From Promethearchaeota archaeon (GTDB lineage Archaea; Asgardarchaeota; Hermodarchaeia; Hermodarchaeales; Hermodarchaeaceae), in assembly GCA_048939625.1 (NCBI GenBank), contig JBHLPH010000016.1, positions 1 through 47,001 of the forward strand: 47,001 nt of DNA. Direction: 5' to 3'. The notes beneath the pieces are model-generated. The model searched no databases. It had not been told where the DNA came from and was given only the letters and a program-made list of their open reading frames with translations. Shown piece after piece: positions 2,637 to 27,281 of the stretch. Both the position numbers and the translations under genes were made by a program. Each line of letters starts with the position of its first letter. The stretch's first letter is position 1.

Positions 2637-2658
2637 AACTAGAACTTGCCAAGGGCAG

Positions 2659-3201
2659 TTAGGTTGAACTACTCTTAGTTTTGTGCTTAGTTGTTGAGCT
2701 TCGTTTGGGGGGTTCGTCCTTTACTGCTTGGCGGACAGTGACTAGTATATTGCTTTGAAGTTCACGAAGAAAATTCTCAAACCGTGTTTCAAAGAGCGTA
2801 ATCATTTCTTCAAGGCGCTGAACAGCTTGAGTTAATGTTGGAACGAGTTCTCGTTGGAGCTCTTTTAGATCTGCTGATGCTGATTCAGGTTTTTTCTTCG
2901 CTACCTTGTCTATGGTTTTTTCAAAGGTCTCAAATCGATCGACGAGAACACCAAGTCGTTCAACAGAGGATTCTGAGGCTATAGTGTCATCCGCGACTAG
3001 CTTTTGCAGTGTTTTCACCTCCCGGAGGAGGGCCCGAATGTTAGCTTCCATCTTGAGATTCATCCGTCCCAGGTCTGAGTCGAGTAGGTTCAGACCTTTC
3101 ACTATCCGCTTCAGGGACTCAACGGTAGGGACTAGGCCCTTTGGCGTTTTGATGGCTTCGATTTCAATTGCATATTTTGGCGGATCAGAGGACACGGTCA
3201 C
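2659..3201 (-). CDS. Hypothetical coiled-coil protein in the ESCRT/ubiquitin cluster
   Basis: 180 aa ORF with a short N-terminal beta motif (IEIEAIKTPKGLVP), heptad-rich helices and a basic tail; GTG start. Confidence 0.75.
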   Translation of the reverse strand: MTVSSDPPKYAIEIEAIKTPKGLVPTVESLKRIVKGLNLLDSDLGRMNLKMEANIRALLREVKTLQKLVADDTIASESSVERLGVLVDRFETFEKTIDKVAKKKPESASADLKELQRELVPTLTQAVQRLEEMITLFETRFENFLRELQSNILVTVRQAVKDEPPKRSSTTKHKTKSSST

Positions 3202-20008: not shown

Positions 20009-21754
20009 TTGGCTTCGGCACAGCCTCCAGCAGGGTTAACTATCTCCATTAAGGAACACGAACATACACGATTGACGGCAGATAACACCATTTCCCGATT
20101 TGATCCACGTGGTCAAGTGTTAATCAAGAATAATTCTCGAAAGTATGCCGTATGGGATGCAGAATTAGAGCTAAACCGACAAAATCGAACCACTTTAGGA
20201 ACTGATACCTTGGATATCGGTCGTTTGGATCCGATGACAGAGTGGGAAAAAGATTTCATCGTAAAAGAAATCGAGTCTCCTATGCTTTTACTCTCTGAAG
20301 CTCTTGATACATATTATGAACGCGTCGGCGTAAACAACGCCTTGGTTTTCGAGTATAAGATGCCTATAGAGATCAGTCTCAACCTTCGAAATCACTCAGG
20401 CGCAAGAATCCATGATATTATTGTTACAAAAGAAATCCCACCAATTTATGATGACATTGCGATTCAGAAAGCTCAGGTTGGTTCTGTAGAGTATGATTCT
20501 AAAGCCGGTCAAATTATTTGGAAAATTGCAGAACTACCTTCCGAACAAGTTGCTGTACAACGAATCCGTGCAACTATAACTGCTGAAGACACGGAGCCGA
20601 AGCCTGGTGGTAAAGTGCAAGCTTCGTATCGAATAACTGATGTAGTACGTAGTACACTTGTCCCAACGCTTCATGCATCAACGGAAACTGAGATCGGTGT
20701 TGAAAAGGAAGAGAATCCAATGCGGGTTGGGTTCTGGCGATGTAAAGCGTCTCTCCGGAATGCATCAGAGTTTCCACTTCGTCTTGAACGTGTGCAGGTT
20801 GTCCTGACAGCACCTGAAAATGAGGTCCTGTATGAAGGAAATCCGAATCTTCGGTTAGAACCAGGTGAAGTTTGGGGTCATGAATTGGAAGTGAGTGGAG
20901 AGCAGCCAGAATTTGATGTAATTGCCCTCTCGACTGTGGAAGCGCCAATTATTCGTGAAATTGTAGGAACAATTGAAAAAACTGAAACGGTGTTGCCCGT
21001 ACTTCGCGTTGAAGGTAATAAGCGTGTGGAACCCCTGGAATTACTTGCTTGGGAACCTGCTCCTGTGTCTGTCACTTTGCAGGCAAAGAATACGGGTTCA
21101 ATCGAGTGTGACGAAGTCACATTCATTGAAACACTTCCAGCAGGATTTGAACCTCCTGAAACCACGCAAATTCGTGTTCGGTTAGGTGATAAGCCGATTA
21201 CTCGAAGTCTGAAAGTAGATGTTCGACCAAAGGACCGAGATTTGAATCTCCCGCATACCCTGAGTATTCAACTTCAAGATCTGACTGAAAACCACTCTCC
21301 AATAACCCCGGGAGATACCTTGACAGCCAATTACATCAGCATTGCACGAGCGCCAAAACCCAATCATGAACATCCGCTTCCAGTGAAAATTGAAGCCAAC
21401 ACCTTTCCTCCCGGTCCAAAAGCCACTGCCGAAATCTCTGAGACAATGGCCCCAGTCATCAAAATTCGTTCAGTGGTGCGAAAGCTTCGAAAGACTCGAA
21501 CTGTGGCACCCACCTCCGAAGTGGGGGAACTGCTTGTTACGGTTACTTTTGTTAATGAGGGGGAAACTAGCCTCCATGATCCCGAGTTACAGGATCTAAT
21601 TCCTCCGAATTTTGAATTCGTTGGTGTGCCACAAGGAACACCAGAACCAACTGCCCGTGAAACAATGAATGGCACAGTTGTCACTTGGGTTTTGCCTACG
21701 ATGATGAGCCGAGAAAGCTTTGTTGGTAAGTACAAGTATAAGCCAAAGGATTAG
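20009..21754 (+). CDS. Cytosolic multi-beta-sandwich protein (mu-homology-like N-terminal half, DUF11/Ig-like C-terminal domains)
   Basis: Repeated Ig-type motifs (..N.G.......D.IP..F, W...L); no signal peptide or TM; TTG start after GAGGTG. Confidence 0.7.
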   Translation: MASAQPPAGLTISIKEHEHTRLTADNTISRFDPRGQVLIKNNSRKYAVWDAELELNRQNRTTLGTDTLDIGRLDPMTEWEKDFIVKEIESPMLLLSEALDTYYERVGVNNALVFEYKMPIEISLNLRNHSGARIHDIIVTKEIPPIYDDIAIQKAQVGSVEYDSKAGQIIWKIAELPSEQVAVQRIRATITAEDTEPKPGGKVQASYRITDVVRSTLVPTLHASTETEIGVEKEENPMRVGFWRCKASLRNASEFPLRLERVQVVLTAPENEVLYEGNPNLRLEPGEVWGHELEVSGEQPEFDVIALSTVEAPIIREIVGTIEKTETVLPVLRVEGNKRVEPLELLAWEPAPVSVTLQAKNTGSIECDEVTFIETLPAGFEPPETTQIRVRLGDKPITRSLKVDVRPKDRDLNLPHTLSIQLQDLTENHSPITPGDTLTANYISIARAPKPNHEHPLPVKIEANTFPPGPKATAEISETMAPVIKIRSVVRKLRKTRTVAPTSEVGELLVTVTFVNEGETSLHDPELQDLIPPNFEFVGVPQGTPEPTARETMNGTVVTWVLPTMMSRESFVGKYKYKPKD

Positions 21755-21756
21755 GA

Positions 21757-22803
21757 TCAATAATACCAGGTTTCAAGTTTTGGTTCTAATAAATCCCGTT
21801 GTTTGTCGTCTTTTGATGCAGGGCATACTGAACTGAGAGGACAGGTTTCCTGACACGGGACGCTGAGGAGGTGTGCAACTTCAAAACACTTCTTTGTACA
21901 ACCTGTAACACAAATTGGATCTGATGCTAGGCAACACTGTCGTCCAAAATGCCAAAAGAAATCATCAAGCTCTAGTACGGATCGGGATGCGACTTCTCCA
22001 ACCTTTGAGTAAGCAACTGCAATCATCTTTCGAAGTTCCACATCCGTTTCCAAGTTCAAGGGTCTTTGTTGACGTAGGTGTGTGGCGAATTGTGGTGCGA
22101 TATTCACGATGCCAGTGCGAAGAGCTATCCGTGTAAGATGGTTATCAACTGGAATGCGAACTTGATCACCATCAGTTATTGACCAGAGATTACGGCGTAG
22201 GATGAACTTCAAGAACAGGTAGCCTTTCTTTTTTGCAGGGTCTTCATAGGCTTTGAATTGTGAAAGCAGTTCCATAAGTCCTGAACGGTGCATTCGAGTA
22301 TCTGAGGTTACGCGATGATTTGCGGCTTCGAGTAAATTCAGGACAGAGCCCTGATAATGCATTACCAGATTAGATCCACTATTCCGTAGTAAAGCAGCTC
22401 TTTCTTGGGGATTTCGTATTGTCACTTGGATTGGCTCGTGGACAGTATACCAATCTATAACTGTCTCTGTGCTAATTTCAGCCATTACTGAAGGATCGAA
22501 AAGATGAGGATCGGCCTTAAATTTGCGTAGACTCAAATGCCAAAGGAGATCGGCACCTTGGAAATATTCTCCATCCACAATTCCTTCAAAACTTTGGTTT
22601 GGTGGGCTCGTTCGGTGATCAATACCTGTTACAAAGAAAAAGAATCGAACAATCCCTTCGGGTTGATAATCGGTGGATGGAAAAAGTTGGGGATCTAAGA
22701 ATTGCTCAGCTTTTGGCTGGAGTTCAACAAGAAGCTGTCCAAGTTTTTCACTCTGGACATCTGAAACGGTCACTGAATAATCCACAGAAATTAACACACC
22801 CAC
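21757..22803 (-). CDS. Queuosine-salvage (DUF2419/QNG1)-like, HhH-glycosylase-superfamily protein with C-terminal Cys cluster
   Basis: G.YF.G.D.LW, ERA.LL...G..L...Y.G, KK..L, IPVD.H..RI.LR.G, LDDFFW..GR, Cys-rich tail, terminal TWYY. Confidence 0.65.
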   Translation of the reverse strand: MGVLISVDYSVTVSDVQSEKLGQLLVELQPKAEQFLDPQLFPSTDYQPEGIVRFFFFVTGIDHRTSPPNQSFEGIVDGEYFQGADLLWHLSLRKFKADPHLFDPSVMAEISTETVIDWYTVHEPIQVTIRNPQERAALLRNSGSNLVMHYQGSVLNLLEAANHRVTSDTRMHRSGLMELLSQFKAYEDPAKKKGYLFLKFILRRNLWSITDGDQVRIPVDNHLTRIALRTGIVNIAPQFATHLRQQRPLNLETDVELRKMIAVAYSKVGEVASRSVLELDDFFWHFGRQCCLASDPICVTGCTKKCFEVAHLLSVPCQETCPLSSVCPASKDDKQRDLLEPKLETWYY

Positions 22804-22857: not shown

Positions 22858-23406
22858 GTGATGTCTGATTTCAAAGAAGCTCAAATAGATGATGTATTTC
22901 GGCAAATGACTGAGGTCCTTGAAAGGACACTGAACCGTATCAGTGAAGTCGAGCAACATATCTCAAAGGACCTTGAAAGTATTCGGCGTCAACTAGATGC
23001 TGTTGGAGTCCTAAAAGACAATATTGCGAATCTCAATAATCGAATTGATTCGTTAAGTAAGAAGTTGACGGAACTAAGCAAATCGGAACCCCAGGAACTC
23101 AACCGTTTGATGATGCGGTCCATCGCAGAATTAGATAAACGCATGCAAATGTTTACTATCACAGAAGTTTTATCACGGCTTGAAACAGGACAGGCATTTG
23201 CACCACGAAGTATGACCGCTGCACGGGCTCCCAAAACAACCTTCGAACCCGAACCTAAGGCGTCAAAAGATGCCAAAGCACCTGAACCAGCTCCAGAAGC
23301 TAAAGCCGAAGTTGATGCAGTAGCAGAATCCACTGGTTCTGGTGAGCCATGGAAAGAGCGAATGCGTGAGAAATATGGTTTGAAAAAGAAACCGGGAAAG
23401 GTTTAA
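22858..23406 (+). CDS. Coiled-coil protein with Pro/Ala/Glu linker and C-terminal Trp-containing basic helix
   Basis: Heptad repeats over aa 1-110, linker EPEPKA..APEPAPEAK, tail GEPWKERMREKYGL. Start is GTG 22858 or ATG 22861. Confidence 0.8.
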   Translation: MMSDFKEAQIDDVFRQMTEVLERTLNRISEVEQHISKDLESIRRQLDAVGVLKDNIANLNNRIDSLSKKLTELSKSEPQELNRLMMRSIAELDKRMQMFTITEVLSRLETGQAFAPRSMTAARAPKTTFEPEPKASKDAKAPEPAPEAKAEVDAVAESTGSGEPWKERMREKYGLKKKPGKV

Positions 23407-23407
23407 C

Positions 23408-23860
23408 TCACTTCTTCTTTTGGATTTCAATGTAGCGCCGTATCATTCGTTCCATTCGGAGGCAGTATAGGGCATCTTGAGCAGCTTGGAGAGTTTCTGA
23501 AATTAATTCTTGAACTTGAGCATCTGCAGAGGATGACCGAAGATCTCCTAAGGATTCAAACCCTTGGGCAATGGTTGCGGCTAGCTGAGAATAATGGGTT
23601 ACGCTGCTACGTCGTTGTTCACGAAGATTAGAAAGCAGTTCCTGAAATTGGGGTTCGATAGTGTCTAATCGAGCTTTGACCAGTTGGTCGATTTGGTTGA
23701 TTGTATCCTTGAGTGTTGATACTTCTTGAGTTAGTCCAGAAATTCTCGTGAAGAGGTTGTTAAAGGCTTGTGTTACAAAGGGGATTAACGATTCATCACC
23801 AGTAGCAGCTGGCTGTTCTGGTGGCGGTGGGGTTGGTGGAGAGGGGGGTTTATCAGCCAT
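23408..23860 (-). CDS. Coiled-coil protein with N-terminal polyproline tract
   Basis: MADKPPSPPTPPPP followed by heptad helices; GGAGG SD upstream. Confidence 0.82.
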   Translation of the reverse strand: MADKPPSPPTPPPPEQPAATGDESLIPFVTQAFNNLFTRISGLTQEVSTLKDTINQIDQLVKARLDTIEPQFQELLSNLREQRRSSVTHYSQLAATIAQGFESLGDLRSSSADAQVQELISETLQAAQDALYCLRMERMIRRYIEIQKKK

Positions 23861-23874
23861 GTTTGTTTGCCTCC

Positions 23875-24264
23875 TTATTTGCCTCCTTTCTTGGCAGATT
23901 CGAACTCCTTTACTGTTTTCAGAATTTCATCTAGATCAATTCGATTCGTGAGTTCGTCCACAATTTCAATGATAACGCGAATCGCTTCTTCGATATCTTT
24001 TAGGTTGCTGAGTTCTTTGGCCCGGTCAACTTCGGCAATAAGCTGTGTTTCTACTAGTTGACGTTGTTCGCGGAATGTGGACACGTCCCGATGGATTTCT
24101 TGAGCAGCTAGATTCGCTTGCTTTGCAGTCTGTTCCATCTGTGCGGAAAGATCCTGACCGAGTTGTTCCATTGCTGACTGTGTTGCTTTGAGTTGTTCGC
24201 CGAGGTCTTCAAGGCCTTTTTCGATTTTTGCTATGGCGTCTTTAACCATCGCTGCATCTGACAT
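23875..24264 (-). CDS. Coiled-coil protein directly downstream of the actin-like gene
   Basis: ATG 24264 with a GGAG SD, 8 nt after the actin-like stop; continuous heptads. Confidence 0.82.
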   Translation of the reverse strand: MSDAAMVKDAIAKIEKGLEDLGEQLKATQSAMEQLGQDLSAQMEQTAKQANLAAQEIHRDVSTFREQRQLVETQLIAEVDRAKELSNLKDIEEAIRVIIEIVDELTNRIDLDEILKTVKEFESAKKGGK

Positions 24265-24272
24265 GAGTTCTC

Positions 24273-25304
24273 CTATCCTTCTTTCGTGTTTTTTGCGGTA
24301 CCGAGCCAACTACTGTAAAGAGGTTTTTCAAGGTCAAAAACCTTGACTGTGAGGTGGGGGATTTGTGCTTTGAGATCCGTTTCAATCCGTGTTGGAAGAC
24401 CAGGAAGCATTGAACCTCCTCCAGTGAGGACGATATTTGCGGCTAGTTCTGCGCGCACAGTAGTGTCTACACGCATTAATACATCTACAATAGCCTCTGT
24501 TAAGCCTTTGTCTCCTACCCCAAGAAGCGTTGGATGAAATAATACTTCTGGGGCTTGCCAGGGTAGCGGTCCGAGTGGAAGTTGTAGTCCTTCAAACGAA
24601 AAATCAACGTCGTCCTCAAAAACATCATTAACGGCCATGGGAAAGACTTGACAGTGAGTTTGTTTAATCGCCCGAATTGCTTTCTCATTTTGCGTAAGTT
24701 GAGTATAATGGGGGACTAATTCCGCTGGGGAGGTTTCGCTTTTATGGAGTAAGAGTTTCCGAATTTCAGCAGATACAAAAAAACTGCCTGTTACTAGGGG
24801 GAGAATTTGCTCTTCAAGGAGAAAACCTCGATAAATCGGAGTGACAAAGGTGCTAGTGTAGCCGATATCAACAATTAATCCAGTTTTTCGTCCCCAATGA
24901 CTCCACGTTGATATCTGTTGAATTGCAGCATCAACCTGGTGGCAGCCTAGAGCCTCCTGGAGAACTTGACACAAATCATTCACTCGATCTGATGGAGATT
25001 GTGGAAATACCAACAACGTTAATTTGAGTTTATCACGTTGCTTGTTCATTGTGGGAAAGTGCTCTAACGCTAGAATGCACAGTTGTGTAATAAGCGAAGA
25101 ATCCGTGGGAAGAAAACCGTCCTCTAAAGGAAATATCCACGCTCGACGGCCTGGATCTAATTCGAGAAAAACCGATGGACTGCCACTTGGGTTGGGATTT
25201 TTAAAAGCAGCAGGTATGACTATGGGTTCTGGTTGTTCAGGAAACCCACATTTCATGTAGCCACTACCCAGGTCAATGATAAGGTTGGCTTGGGTATTAT
25301 TCAC
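24273..25304 (-). CDS. Divergent actin-related protein (acidic paralog)
   Basis: IIDLGSGYMKCGF, FPLEDG, AIQ, G.KTGLIVDIG, PIY.GF, IK...C.V, APEVLF.P.L.G, D..VR.EL.ANIVLTGG.SMLPG, YSSWLG. Confidence 0.9.
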   Translation of the reverse strand: MNNTQANLIIDLGSGYMKCGFPEQPEPIVIPAAFKNPNPSGSPSVFLELDPGRRAWIFPLEDGFLPTDSSLITQLCILALEHFPTMNKQRDKLKLTLLVFPQSPSDRVNDLCQVLQEALGCHQVDAAIQQISTWSHWGRKTGLIVDIGYTSTFVTPIYRGFLLEEQILPLVTGSFFVSAEIRKLLLHKSETSPAELVPHYTQLTQNEKAIRAIKQTHCQVFPMAVNDVFEDDVDFSFEGLQLPLGPLPWQAPEVLFHPTLLGVGDKGLTEAIVDVLMRVDTTVRAELAANIVLTGGGSMLPGLPTRIETDLKAQIPHLTVKVFDLEKPLYSSWLGTAKNTKEG

Positions 25305-25416
25305 AAACCAAACCTAGGATACATATTTGAAAATAGTTTCTATTCGAAAGCTAATGTCTAGAGATTTCTCGAAATTATTAGGTGGTACGGGGAAAAAGAA
25401 CCATGCAGAAAGCAGC

Positions 25417-26430
25417 TTAAGGTGGTCTATGCAGAGTTGCGGCACCTGACCACGCGTTGGTCAATGCATCCTCGAGTGCGTAAACATTAATGGGAAGATG
25501 TGGAAGGCGACGTTTGAGTTCGTATTCGAACCGTTCACGGAGTCCAAGGAAGAGGGATCCACCTCCCGTGAGTACAATATCATTTGATAGTTCTCGGCGG
25601 ATGGTCATATCAGCCTGCTCAATACAATTCACCACAGCATCTATCAGCCCCATATCACCAATCCCAATGAGTGAAGGGTCGAACAGGACTTCTGGTGCTT
25701 TCCAAGTAACCGAGCCCAGAGGAACTTTTAGATCTTTACGTCGATAATGCCATTCACGCGGCGTTTTCTTGATTTTAGGATTAGGACGAACCTGACAGAA
25801 ATTACGTTTAATATACTCGATGGCTTTGGTGTCTGTTGCAATTTTGGCATAGTCAGAGTACTTTGCTGAATTCTTTGCTTTTTCCTCGAATAGGCGCCGT
25901 AAAGCTGCAGTCACATAGAGACTTCCTGTTACGGTATCAACTACATGTTCCCGTAGGAGAAATCCTTGGTAAATGGGCGTTATAATCGAAATCGTGTGCC
26001 CAATATCTACGACTGTTCCTGTATGTTTTCCAAGGAATAGGAGTGTGAGAACTTGTTGATAAGCTGCAAGGAGTTTCCGGCATCCAAGTTTTTCTCGAAG
26101 TCCATCACACACATCATAGATACGATTTTGCTCGACTGTAGAAAAAACGAGGAGTTGGAGTTCAGTTGCAACCCGTTGGAACCCTCCAATCGCTACCCGG
26201 TTAAATACATCCAGAATGAGAGGGGCTAGAATCTCACTATCTGGAAGACTTCCATTTTCGAGGGGATAGAATTTACCAATTCGTGTTGGGTCAAGTGTAG
26301 TAAGATAGGGGTCACCCTTATTCTTTTCAGGATCTTTCAGGTATGCAGGAATTATCTTGGGAAGAGCATCATCAGGATGGCCATATTTGAGATAGCCCGT
26401 GCCTAAATCGATAATAAGGGGATTCTGCAT
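25417..26430 (-). CDS. Divergent actin-related protein (basic paralog)
   Basis: IIDLGTGYLKYG, YPLENG, Q.VL.L..G..TG.VVDIG, PIYQGF, IK..FC.V, APEVLFDPS.IG, D..IR.EL..IVLTGG.S.F.G, W.G. Confidence 0.9.
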   Translation of the reverse strand: MQNPLIIDLGTGYLKYGHPDDALPKIIPAYLKDPEKNKGDPYLTTLDPTRIGKFYPLENGSLPDSEILAPLILDVFNRVAIGGFQRVATELQLLVFSTVEQNRIYDVCDGLREKLGCRKLLAAYQQVLTLLFLGKHTGTVVDIGHTISIITPIYQGFLLREHVVDTVTGSLYVTAALRRLFEEKAKNSAKYSDYAKIATDTKAIEYIKRNFCQVRPNPKIKKTPREWHYRRKDLKVPLGSVTWKAPEVLFDPSLIGIGDMGLIDAVVNCIEQADMTIRRELSNDIVLTGGGSLFLGLRERFEYELKRRLPHLPINVYALEDALTNAWSGAATLHRPP

Positions 26431-26465: not shown

Positions 26466-27281
26466 TTAGGGTCGGGTAAGTAACGTTGAGTATGGTAATG
26501 TGGGGTCAATGAAGTTAAATGTAACTTTAGGAAGTTCCACATCGAGAATTTGTGTCAACCGACTCATCCCAGGTGATTCGGTGAAACTCTGAGGGAGGGC
26601 AACAAGTTTTATTTTTAATTGGCTAGCCTGAATTGCTAGTTCATGAGTAAGATGTCCTGTGAGATAGGTATCATATCCGCGTTGCCTTGCTAGATGTAGC
26701 CAGTGAGAGTTAATTCCATCACCAGAGACGATTACGAGCCGATTCACTTCATCATCAAGATTCCCAACATAATTGATTGATGGAACATTTAGCCGTTTTG
26801 TGACATATTGAATTAACATCTTGAGATTCATTTCTTTGGGAACTTCACATGCGCGTCCGAGTGGATGAATTCCACCTAAAAGAGGAACTTTGAACACATC
26901 GAAAACATCGAATCCAAGCGTATGTGCTAGCACATCGTTCATTCCTCCGTCAACCATGGCCCAATTATAATGGGTGACATAGACTGTCATTTTATGTTTT
27001 AGTAGATGCTGCAGTAGCAGTTGGGGAACCCCTGTTAATGTGTGGGTCGATCGTGGAAAGGGAGAGCGATGTGTAATGAGGAAGTTGGCTTTGTGCTCGT
27101 TGGCTTTAACGATGACAGGAAGTGTGATATCTACACAGACATCAACGGCATTAATCCGTACACGTCGTTGCTTTGATTCATCATTGACGCCAAGAATCAC
27201 GCCATCGACATCGTCCTGTGGCACATACATTGCTGGTGCTAGTTTTCTAATATGCGAAATAATATCCCATAGAGTCGTCAT
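26466..27281 (-). CDS. Nif3-like protein with degenerate metal ligands
   Basis: D.DG..LG, VD.T..VI..A....A..LITH, Y..H.N, GG.ND.LA..LG, LGR, YLTG...H, TE.PG. Confidence 0.85.
   Translation of the reverse strand: MTTLWDIISHIRKLAPAMYVPQDDVDGVILGVNDESKQRRVRINAVDVCVDITLPVIVKANEHKANFLITHRSPFPRSTHTLTGVPQLLLQHLLKHKMTVYVTHYNWAMVDGGMNDVLAHTLGFDVFDVFKVPLLGGIHPLGRACEVPKEMNLKMLIQYVTKRLNVPSINYVGNLDDEVNRLVIVSGDGINSHWLHLARQRGYDTYLTGHLTHELAIQASQLKIKLVALPQSFTESPGMSRLTQILDVELPKVTFNFIDPTLPYSTLLTRP

Follow-up and report, generated by a model that had tools for sequence, protein, structure and literature searches.

A locus in the archaeal class Hermodarchaeia, in which two actin-related genes lie side by side and are accompanied by genes for three small helical proteins, raises the question of whether these five genes form a working unit beside the main actin, lokiactin, which is encoded elsewhere, or are simply long-standing neighbors. 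The locus lies in a 47,001-nt stretch of contig JBHLPH010000016.1, hereafter the window, whose positions provide all coordinates given here and whose source is a 2.31-Mb metagenome-assembled genome (MAG) that is 87.6% complete. The five products are called ArpA and ArpB (the actin-related proteins, or Arps), CC1, CC2, and CC3 (Table 1). We propose that they belong to a Hermodarchaeia-specific, class-universal module, in which highly diverged actin-family proteins, one or two in number, act together with three mutually unrelated small helical proteins, and we rate the chances of this proposal as about even.

Two divergent members of the actin family

ArpA and ArpB reached 124.5 and 116.5 bits, respectively, against the Pfam Actin profile (PF00022), for which the cut-off is 27, and are paralogues of each other (41% identity; E = 7e-90), so that the two adjacent paralogous actin-fold genes reported in a preliminary description of this DNA, made from the sequence alone, are confirmed. 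The best sequence match in the PDB is Arp1 for ArpA (2.2e-26), with actins only marginally behind, and yeast actin for ArpB (1.2e-25), for which Arp1 ranks below actin. The AlphaFold2 model of ArpA (predicted local distance difference test score [pLDDT], 91; predicted template modeling score [pTM], 0.90) presents the four-subdomain actin fold and matches many actins with a Foldseek template modeling score of about 0.8. In the VIA comparison, the structure closest to the model is eukaryotic actin (Z = 34.7 over 312 residues), followed by Arp4 (31.5) and crenactin (30.9), with Arp7/9, Arp2/3, and Arp8 within Z values of 30 to 31.5; MreB (Z of about 25.6) and ParM (Z of about 20) are farther away. 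In 22 family members representing both paralogues, the residues D8, G10, G12, K15, Q125/Q126, D142, G144, G289, and G290 are invariant. In particular, the phosphate 1, phosphate 2, and adenosine motifs of the nucleotide-binding site are kept, which suggests that the Arps probably still bind ATP.

The identity of the Arps to lokiactin is only 22 to 26% (26% between ArpA and the lokiactin of the same genus), and the alignment with the same-genus lokiactin revealed several altered regions, namely, a 15-column gap (about 15 residues) in subdomain 2, an insertion in subdomain 4, and a C terminus that stops about 25 to 27 residues early, so that the C-terminal helices lining the barbed-end cleft are absent from the Arps. 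Moreover, the equivalents of D157 and H161 are replaced. Thus, part of subdomain 2 and the C-terminal helices that canonical actin has in subdomain 1 are missing from the Arps.

Three unrelated helical proteins under purifying selection

The ratio of nonsynonymous to synonymous substitution rates (dN/dS), computed pairwise against three same-genus orthologues and only where dS could be estimated, ranges from 0.035 to 0.18 across the five genes and is as low as that of the housekeeping neighbor NIF3. These low values imply that the small open reading frames (ORFs) are genuine genes, and they indicate that all five genes are real and under purifying selection.

No relation among CC1, CC2, and CC3 could be detected, since hhalign gave mutual probabilities of only 2 to 11%, and paralogy among them was therefore rejected. 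Searches of the three proteins against Pfam, the PDB, and the ESM Atlas returned no family beyond sub-threshold, shifting matches to generic coiled coils; the top score of the ESM Atlas look-alikes of CC2 (0.84) falls in the noise range, and they were discarded. When the 3.5-residue hydrophobic periodicity was compared with that of 1000 shuffles, the signal of CC3 exceeded all of them and was strong, that of CC1 was moderate (P = 0.014), and that of CC2 was heptad-like only around residues 30 to 70 (P = 0.13 for the whole protein). It follows that, of the three coiled-coil proteins announced in the preliminary description, CC3 combines a long helix with heptad periodicity and CC1 is supported by its periodicity, but CC2 shows the pattern only locally, and “helical” is the better name for it.

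The alignment of 14 CC1 sequences contains 28 invariant columns, with 36 to 40% identity to the second genus of the class, and the dN/dS of the gene is about 0.055. For CC2 (dN/dS of 0.04 to 0.06), 50 invariant columns were counted. Its first conserved block consists of an invariant (L/M)IPFxTQAF followed by xxLF in the aligned sequences of the window's genus and of the second genus; the further blocks QRRSS(V/I)T and ALYCLR vary slightly in distant lineages. The N-terminal tail of CC2 is disordered, of low complexity, and Pro rich in the window's genus. Polyproline was nevertheless dismissed as a feature of the family, for one lineage besides this genus has a Pro-rich tail, whereas P0134, P0138, and the second genus do not.

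CC3, with the lowest ratio (0.035), is predicted by AlphaFold2 to form a single helix of 108 residues (2 to 109), followed by a linker and a short helix. The linker (110 to 162) is disordered, rich in P, A, K, and E, variable, and poorly conserved. In the alignment of both genera, the short helix carries the only invariant stretch of the tail, the amphipathic W-x-E-x-M-x-x-K-Y-G-L-K-x-x-P-G motif. The 42-residue tail matched no Pfam family at E values of up to 10, including WH2 (PF02205). The tail was thus rejected as a WH2 domain, for it lacks both a match to PF02205 and a conserved LKK[T/V]-type motif, the corresponding residues being LKEE in the second genus.

Two other observations concern these proteins. 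Single weak matches at first evoked the endosomal sorting complex required for transport I (ESCRT-I), as CC3 resembled the Vps28 core (PDB 2caz_B; E = 0.005), CC2 resembled Mod_r/Vps37 (E = 0.042), and CC1 resembled Vps23_core (E = 0.059); the scan of all family members turned these into a shifting scatter of sub-threshold coiled-coil families, and the idea was ruled out. In addition, an ORF at 2659 to 3201 (180 amino acids [aa]) of the window, with counterparts in two same-genus genomes, weakly matched the coiled-coil part of the CC3 profile (E = 1.5e-5; match at 2644 to 3021, minus strand), which probably reflects generic coiled-coil similarity.

The long CC3 helix and the altered Arp surfaces bear on the nature of the putative module. 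In chromatin remodelers, the HSA helix serves as the binding site of nuclear Arp4-actin and Arp7-Arp9, and one may imagine that the Arps of Hermodarchaeia do not polymerize but bind through their modified barbed-end face, singly or in tandem, along the long helix of CC3 or along a CC1/CC2 helix. The loss of the C-terminal helices, the trimmed subdomain 2, the single helix of 108 residues, and the position of Arp4, Arp7/9, and Arp8 among the top structural neighbors are all consistent with such an arrangement. However, neither HSA domains nor nuclear ARPs show any sequence relation to the proteins of this locus, and the structural ranking does not put the nuclear ARPs above actin, so we consider this arrangement improbable. 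A predicted complex of CC1, CC2, and CC3 with ArpA scored 0.00 against a mark of 0.32, in a run that was made without controls and weighs neither way.

Anatomy of a probable operon and a promoter-like element

The gene calls describe a compact arrangement. The ArpB stop codon (TAG, 24275 to 24273) is overlapped by a GGAG motif and followed at 24264 by the ATG of CC1; on account of this ATG, so close to the stop codon and accompanied by GGAG, we assigned to CC1 the 129-aa frame, rather than a 144-aa ORF starting with TTG. Similarly, the CC1 stop codon (TAA, 23877 to 23875) precedes the ATG of CC2 at 23860, with GGAGG inside the gap. The convergent CC3 gene ends at 23406, which leaves a single nucleotide before the CC2 stop codon (23408), and its start is likely the ATG at 22861, which is kept in orthologues, and not the GTG at 22858. 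The spacings of 8 and 14 nt, the genes led by Shine-Dalgarno (SD) motifs, and the convergence at 1 nt, as given in the preliminary description, could therefore be read directly from the DNA.

TABLE 1 Features of the Arp locus in the window
Feature	Position	Strand	Description	Evidence or context
NIF3/DUF34-family gene	26466..27281	-		PF01784, E = 5e-38; directly upstream of ArpA, 35-nt gap
ArpA	25417..26430	-	Divergent actin-family protein, A-type paralogue, 337 aa, ATG start	PF00022, E = 5.5e-36
Conserved intergenic element GAAACTRTTTTCAAA	25326..25340	-		21 nt upstream of ArpB GTG
ArpB	24273..25304	-	Divergent actin-family protein, B-type paralogue, 343 aa, GTG start	PF00022, E = 1.5e-33
CC1	23875..24264	-	Helical, coiled-coil-like, 129 aa, no known family	8 nt after ArpB, GGAG
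CC2	23408..23860	-	Helical, 150 aa, no known family	14 nt after CC1, GGAGG
CC3	22861..23406	+	181 aa, long helix, linker, and C-terminal motif	Convergent on CC2, 1-nt gap

The spacer between ArpA and ArpB is 112 nt long and, in the nine species compared, variable except for one strongly conserved block, GAAACTRTTTTCAAA, which has a single match in the window. The block occurs in exact form before ArpB in every locus of the window's genus that holds the ArpB start, with the exception of that of G007 (L006), where it carries one mismatch (TTTTGAAA). In G006 (L009), a 288-aa ORF of unknown family (G006:C3 4695-5561, plus strand) is inserted between ArpA and ArpB, and ArpB keeps both its GTG start and the conserved element before it despite this insertion. 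The GTG start itself is conserved in all ArpB orthologues, and ArpB has no SD motif, whereas CC1 and CC2 have one; for CC1, the motif was read in the locus of the window.

In archaea, the TATA box is located about 26 nt before the start site of transcription, leaderless first genes are frequent, and SD motifs are found on internal genes. From its position, GAAACTRTTTTCAAA may represent a putative promoter of ArpB-CC1-CC2, resembling a B recognition element (BRE) and TATA box. An element 21 nt before the GTG, followed by SD-led genes at 8 and 14 nt, conforms to the archaeal pattern and suggests that ArpB, CC1, and CC2 would be made from one leaderless transcript. Furthermore, the features expected of an operon, i.e., a common strand, short spacers, internal SD motifs, and a single upstream promoter-like element, are all present in ArpB-CC1-CC2. 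The distance between CC1 and CC2 ranges from an overlap to 14 nt across all lineages, and that between the Arp stop codon and the CC1 start ranges from an overlap to 22 nt in the window's genus (8 to 22 nt) and in two metagenomic lineages (L023 and L024). A scan for promoters and terminators of the bacterial type gave counts at the level of shuffled sequences, and its model does not apply to archaea.

ArpA follows NIF3 at 35 nt, with GAGGA before its ATG, in all loci of the window's genus. This gap and this motif indicate that ArpA probably rides on the NIF3 transcript, with NIF3 as the probable first gene of a NIF3-ArpA transcription unit, and a functional link between NIF3 and the Arps is possible.

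Distribution and gene order

The Arp family was found in 18 of 400 Asgard genomes, all of them of one GTDB family, which corresponds to the whole GTDB class Hermodarchaeia. ArpA and ArpB are both present in all 14 other species of the window's genus, and a single Arp gene is present in three of the four species of the second genus, the fourth having a fragment at a contig edge. CC3 was recovered in 19 of the 19 genomes of the class. All four protein families (the Arps and the three CC families) are confined to Hermodarchaeia (19/19 genomes) and occur nowhere else among the 400 Asgard genomes. In accordance with this distribution, the CC2 profile retrieved, from 5.8 billion proteins, 85 homologues, which all come from this clade and carry no Pfam domain.

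Across more than 30 genomic and metagenomic loci, the gene order is ThrRS, RsmB, NIF3, one or two Arp genes, CC1, CC2, CC3 (convergent), a queuosine-salvage-like gene (Qsalv), and a DUF11 gene; wherever a locus extends far enough, NIF3 is found upstream of the Arp gene. On three more distant contigs with wider annotated flanks, PCC and PolB lie on one side and an M24 peptidase gene lies on the other. The conservation of the cluster, on which the preliminary description had made its proposal depend, is thus borne out in every relative examined, and the module appears to be indispensable in Hermodarchaeia.

Several observations nevertheless weigh against our proposal. ThrRS, RsmB, NIF3, Qsalv, DUF11, PCC, and PolB are equally collinear in all lineages, and because about 10 flanking genes behave in the same way, conservation of the cluster is weak evidence, which cannot separate functional linkage from frozen synteny; moreover, no lineage with rearranged flanks and an intact cluster was found among the GTDB genomes, the genome contigs, or the metagenome contigs. 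Many class-specific orphan genes would have the same distribution by descent alone. In the second genus, which has no ArpB, 110 to 280 nt separate the Arp gene from CC1, and CC1 starts with GTG, so that the coupling of the Arp gene to CC1 is not universal. Finally, CC3 is a separate convergent unit, tied to the Arps by adjacency and shared distribution only.

It is possible to hypothesize, on these grounds, that the genes are only neighbors in a frozen block, the Arps being ordinary lineage-specific Asgard actin paralogues and CC1 and CC2 (and CC3) being part of an unrelated helical module, devoted, for example, to membrane tethering or remodeling or to chromosome organization. The collinearity in every lineage of a block of about 10 genes that includes unrelated housekeeping genes and the wide gap of the second genus would both be explained in this way; in addition, the basic amphipathic C-terminal helix of CC3 would also suit membrane targeting, and the CC proteins match nothing but generic coiled coils. 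However, the position of CC1, from an overlap to 22 nt past the Arp stop codon in the window's genus, L023, and L024, is not what would be expected of mere neighbors, nor is the presence of an SD motif on CC1 (in the window's locus) and none on ArpB, with the sole conserved upstream element preceding ArpB. The contiguity of four orphan families with an identical narrow distribution also argues against mere adjacency, and we regard simple neighborhood as rather unlikely.

History of the A/B pair and relation to lokiactin

A search of 1.84 billion representative proteins with the Arp-family profile gave four clusters of the family itself at E values of at most 1e-119, followed at 1e-53 to 1e-37 by eukaryotic gene models in which two actin genes are fused and at about 1e-36 by single-domain actins. 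The long proteins with two actin stretches were considered as possible fused relatives and rejected, as they are eukaryotic gene models in which tandem actin genes have been joined. Outside the family, the nearest matches are partly divergent eukaryotic actins and partly unnamed actins from metagenomes. In the trees, which include few named ARPs, the Arp family is monophyletic (support, 100/100), sits on a stem of about 1.5 to 2 changes per site, and falls outside all lokiactin, Asgard ARP, and eukaryotic groups. The phylogeny with lokiactins and ARPs that the preliminary description had called for therefore places the Arps in a clade of their own, and the link to eukaryotic ARP complexes that it had drawn is not upheld by this isolated long branch.

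When rooted with the outgroup, the family splits basally into an A clade (support, 95/86), with ArpA of the window's genus, the single genes of the second genus, and a few metagenomic lineages, and a B clade (support, 90/60), with ArpB of the window's genus and the single genes of L023 and L024. As the split lies at the base of the family, the duplication predates the known diversity and was followed by reciprocal loss. The second genus has retained only the A type and L023 and L024 only the B type, with CC1 to CC3 in place in every single-Arp lineage; it follows that an obligate ArpA-ArpB heterodimer is unlikely to be the core of the system.

Regarding the remainder of the actin cytoskeleton, lokiactin is encoded elsewhere, as the preliminary description had assumed, since its first 25 codons were found at the broken end of contig C19 (G000:C19:73868-73942) and complete copies are present in same-genus genomes. 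Lokiactin is cut or split at contig ends also in the same-genus MAGs G005, G007, G010, G011, and G014, which represents a recurrent assembly break. The window's genome also encodes one profilin and two two-domain gelsolins. ARPC4 (PF05856) gave no match in this 87.6%-complete genome, and the control genomes gave no match either.

These data allow an evaluation of the role suggested in the preliminary description, namely, that of a dedicated ArpA-ArpB heterodimer that is held on a coiled-coil scaffold and serves as a nucleator, capper, or anchor for lokiactin, like Arp2/3 or the Arp1/Arp11 pair of dynactin. Two adjacent paralogues, a genome with lokiactin, profilin, and gelsolins, a Pro-rich CC2 tail that could recruit profilin in this genus, and the best PDB match of ArpA, Arp1, which is marginally ahead of actins, are compatible with this role. 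However, the lineages with only an A-type or only a B-type gene all keep CC1 to CC3, the family groups with no eukaryotic ARP class in the trees, subdomain 2 and the C-terminal cleft, which are used in longitudinal actin-actin contacts, are altered, and several lineages lack the Pro-rich tail. We therefore regard this role, taken as a whole, as very unlikely; a nucleator or capper role on lokiactin is unsupported, with nothing in favor of an Arp2/3-like nucleator beyond the two paralogues themselves.

Proposed mode of action and comparison with known systems

Turning back to the proposed module of Arps and CC proteins, joint action of ArpB, CC1, and CC2 is its best-supported part; if they share a transcript, they would most likely act as one complex, and ArpA and CC3 would be probable further members. 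The architecture of CC3 suggests an adaptor, in which a coiled-coil rod and a flexible tether would carry a basic amphipathic C-terminal helix that may dock on an Arp or on the membrane. The module would then probably be a second, self-contained actin-like system beside lokiactin, with a working principle that resembles the ParM-ParR and crenactin-arcadin operons more than Arp2/3. In its most complete form, this idea entails a second self-contained actin-like machine in Hermodarchaeia, with an ATP-binding Arp, homo- or hetero-oligomeric, organized by three new partners and with the CC3 helix docking on the Arp or on the membrane; taken as a whole, we hold this form to be unlikely.

The comparison with known systems points to both similarities and differences. 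The Arps share with lokiactin and eukaryotic actin the family, the fold, and the ATP-binding motifs, and actin is their best structural match, but they differ in their low identity (22 to 26%), in the shortened subdomain 2 and C terminus, and in forming their own long-stemmed clade. The eukaryotic ARP pairs (Arp2/3, Arp7/9, Arp4-actin, and dynactin Arp1/Arp11) are likewise divergent actin-fold paralogues that have non-actin partners and retain ATP-binding residues. However, the pair described here is dispensable, as single-paralogue lineages exist, and, to judge from sequence searches, neither ARPC subunits nor HSA domains nor the shoulder proteins of dynactin are related to CC1 to CC3.

The arcade cluster of crenactin in Thermoproteales also unites an archaeal actin homologue with small lineage-specific accessory genes. 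In arcadin-2, a linker joins the core to a C-terminal helix, which binds in the groove of crenactin, and CC3 has the same core-linker-helix layout. In contrast, the structural comparison does not bring the Arps closer to crenactin (Z = 30.9) than to actin (Z = 34.7), and CC1 to CC3 match only generic coiled coils among PDB sequences, a search that the short arcadin-2 peptide might escape. In the bacterial ParM-ParR, AlfA-AlfB, and CorM-CorR systems, an operon couples an actin-fold ATPase to small adaptors, as it may here, and a terminal peptide or helix of the adaptor docks on the actin-fold protein. Different from these systems, the Arps are of the eukaryotic type (Z of 20 for ParM versus 34.7 for actin), and their locus is chromosomal and class universal, with no sign of a mobile element or centromere-like repeat. 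Finally, the CC3 tail recalls WH2 in being a short amphipathic helix followed, in the window's genus, by G-L-K-K-K, but it has no PF02205 match and no spacer between the helix and LKK, it reads LKEE in the second genus, and the cleft on which WH2 normally docks has changed in the Arps.

The ARPs of Asgard archaea are known to be diverse, and, to our knowledge, beyond lokiactin, profilins, and gelsolins, no function or partners have been assigned to them. Our literature search retrieved no description of this Arp locus or of the CC partner proteins, and the gene group is previously undescribed as far as the literature searched shows. With one or two Arps and three small proteins, the locus supplies a strongly conserved set of candidates that is small and well delimited and could be tested together directly. 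If the complex forms, accessory subunits would be identified for an Asgard ARP for the first time, and the complex would show how actin paralogues gain dedicated partners outside eukaryotes. Docking of CC3 would provide an independent counterpart of arcadin-2/ParR/WH2- or HSA-type recognition in the archaeal lineage nearest to eukaryotes. If no complex forms, the Arps would add a further lineage-specific branch to the radiation of Asgard actins that is already known.

Neighboring genes

Some features of the genes around the locus may be mentioned. At every locus, the Arp module is collinear with the DUF11 gene (20009 to 21754, plus strand), whose 581-aa product carries a DUF11/CLIPPER repeat (E = 1.6e-9). 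This product also has a sub-threshold match to the medium subunit of adaptor complexes (mu-homology; E = 1.2e-4; 22 bits versus a cut-off of 31.6), and this weak Adap_comp_sub match recurs in its distant orthologues. The queuosine-salvage-like gene (21757 to 22803, minus strand; PF10343, E = 2.7e-8) is divergent from CC3, with a spacer of 54 to 57 nt, and, among 31 relatives, occurs only in Hermodarchaeia and one other Asgard family. Downstream of the block, PolB has no intein in two lineages and contains one in a third (contig of P0128), as indicated by weak Intein_splicing and LAGLIDADG matches.

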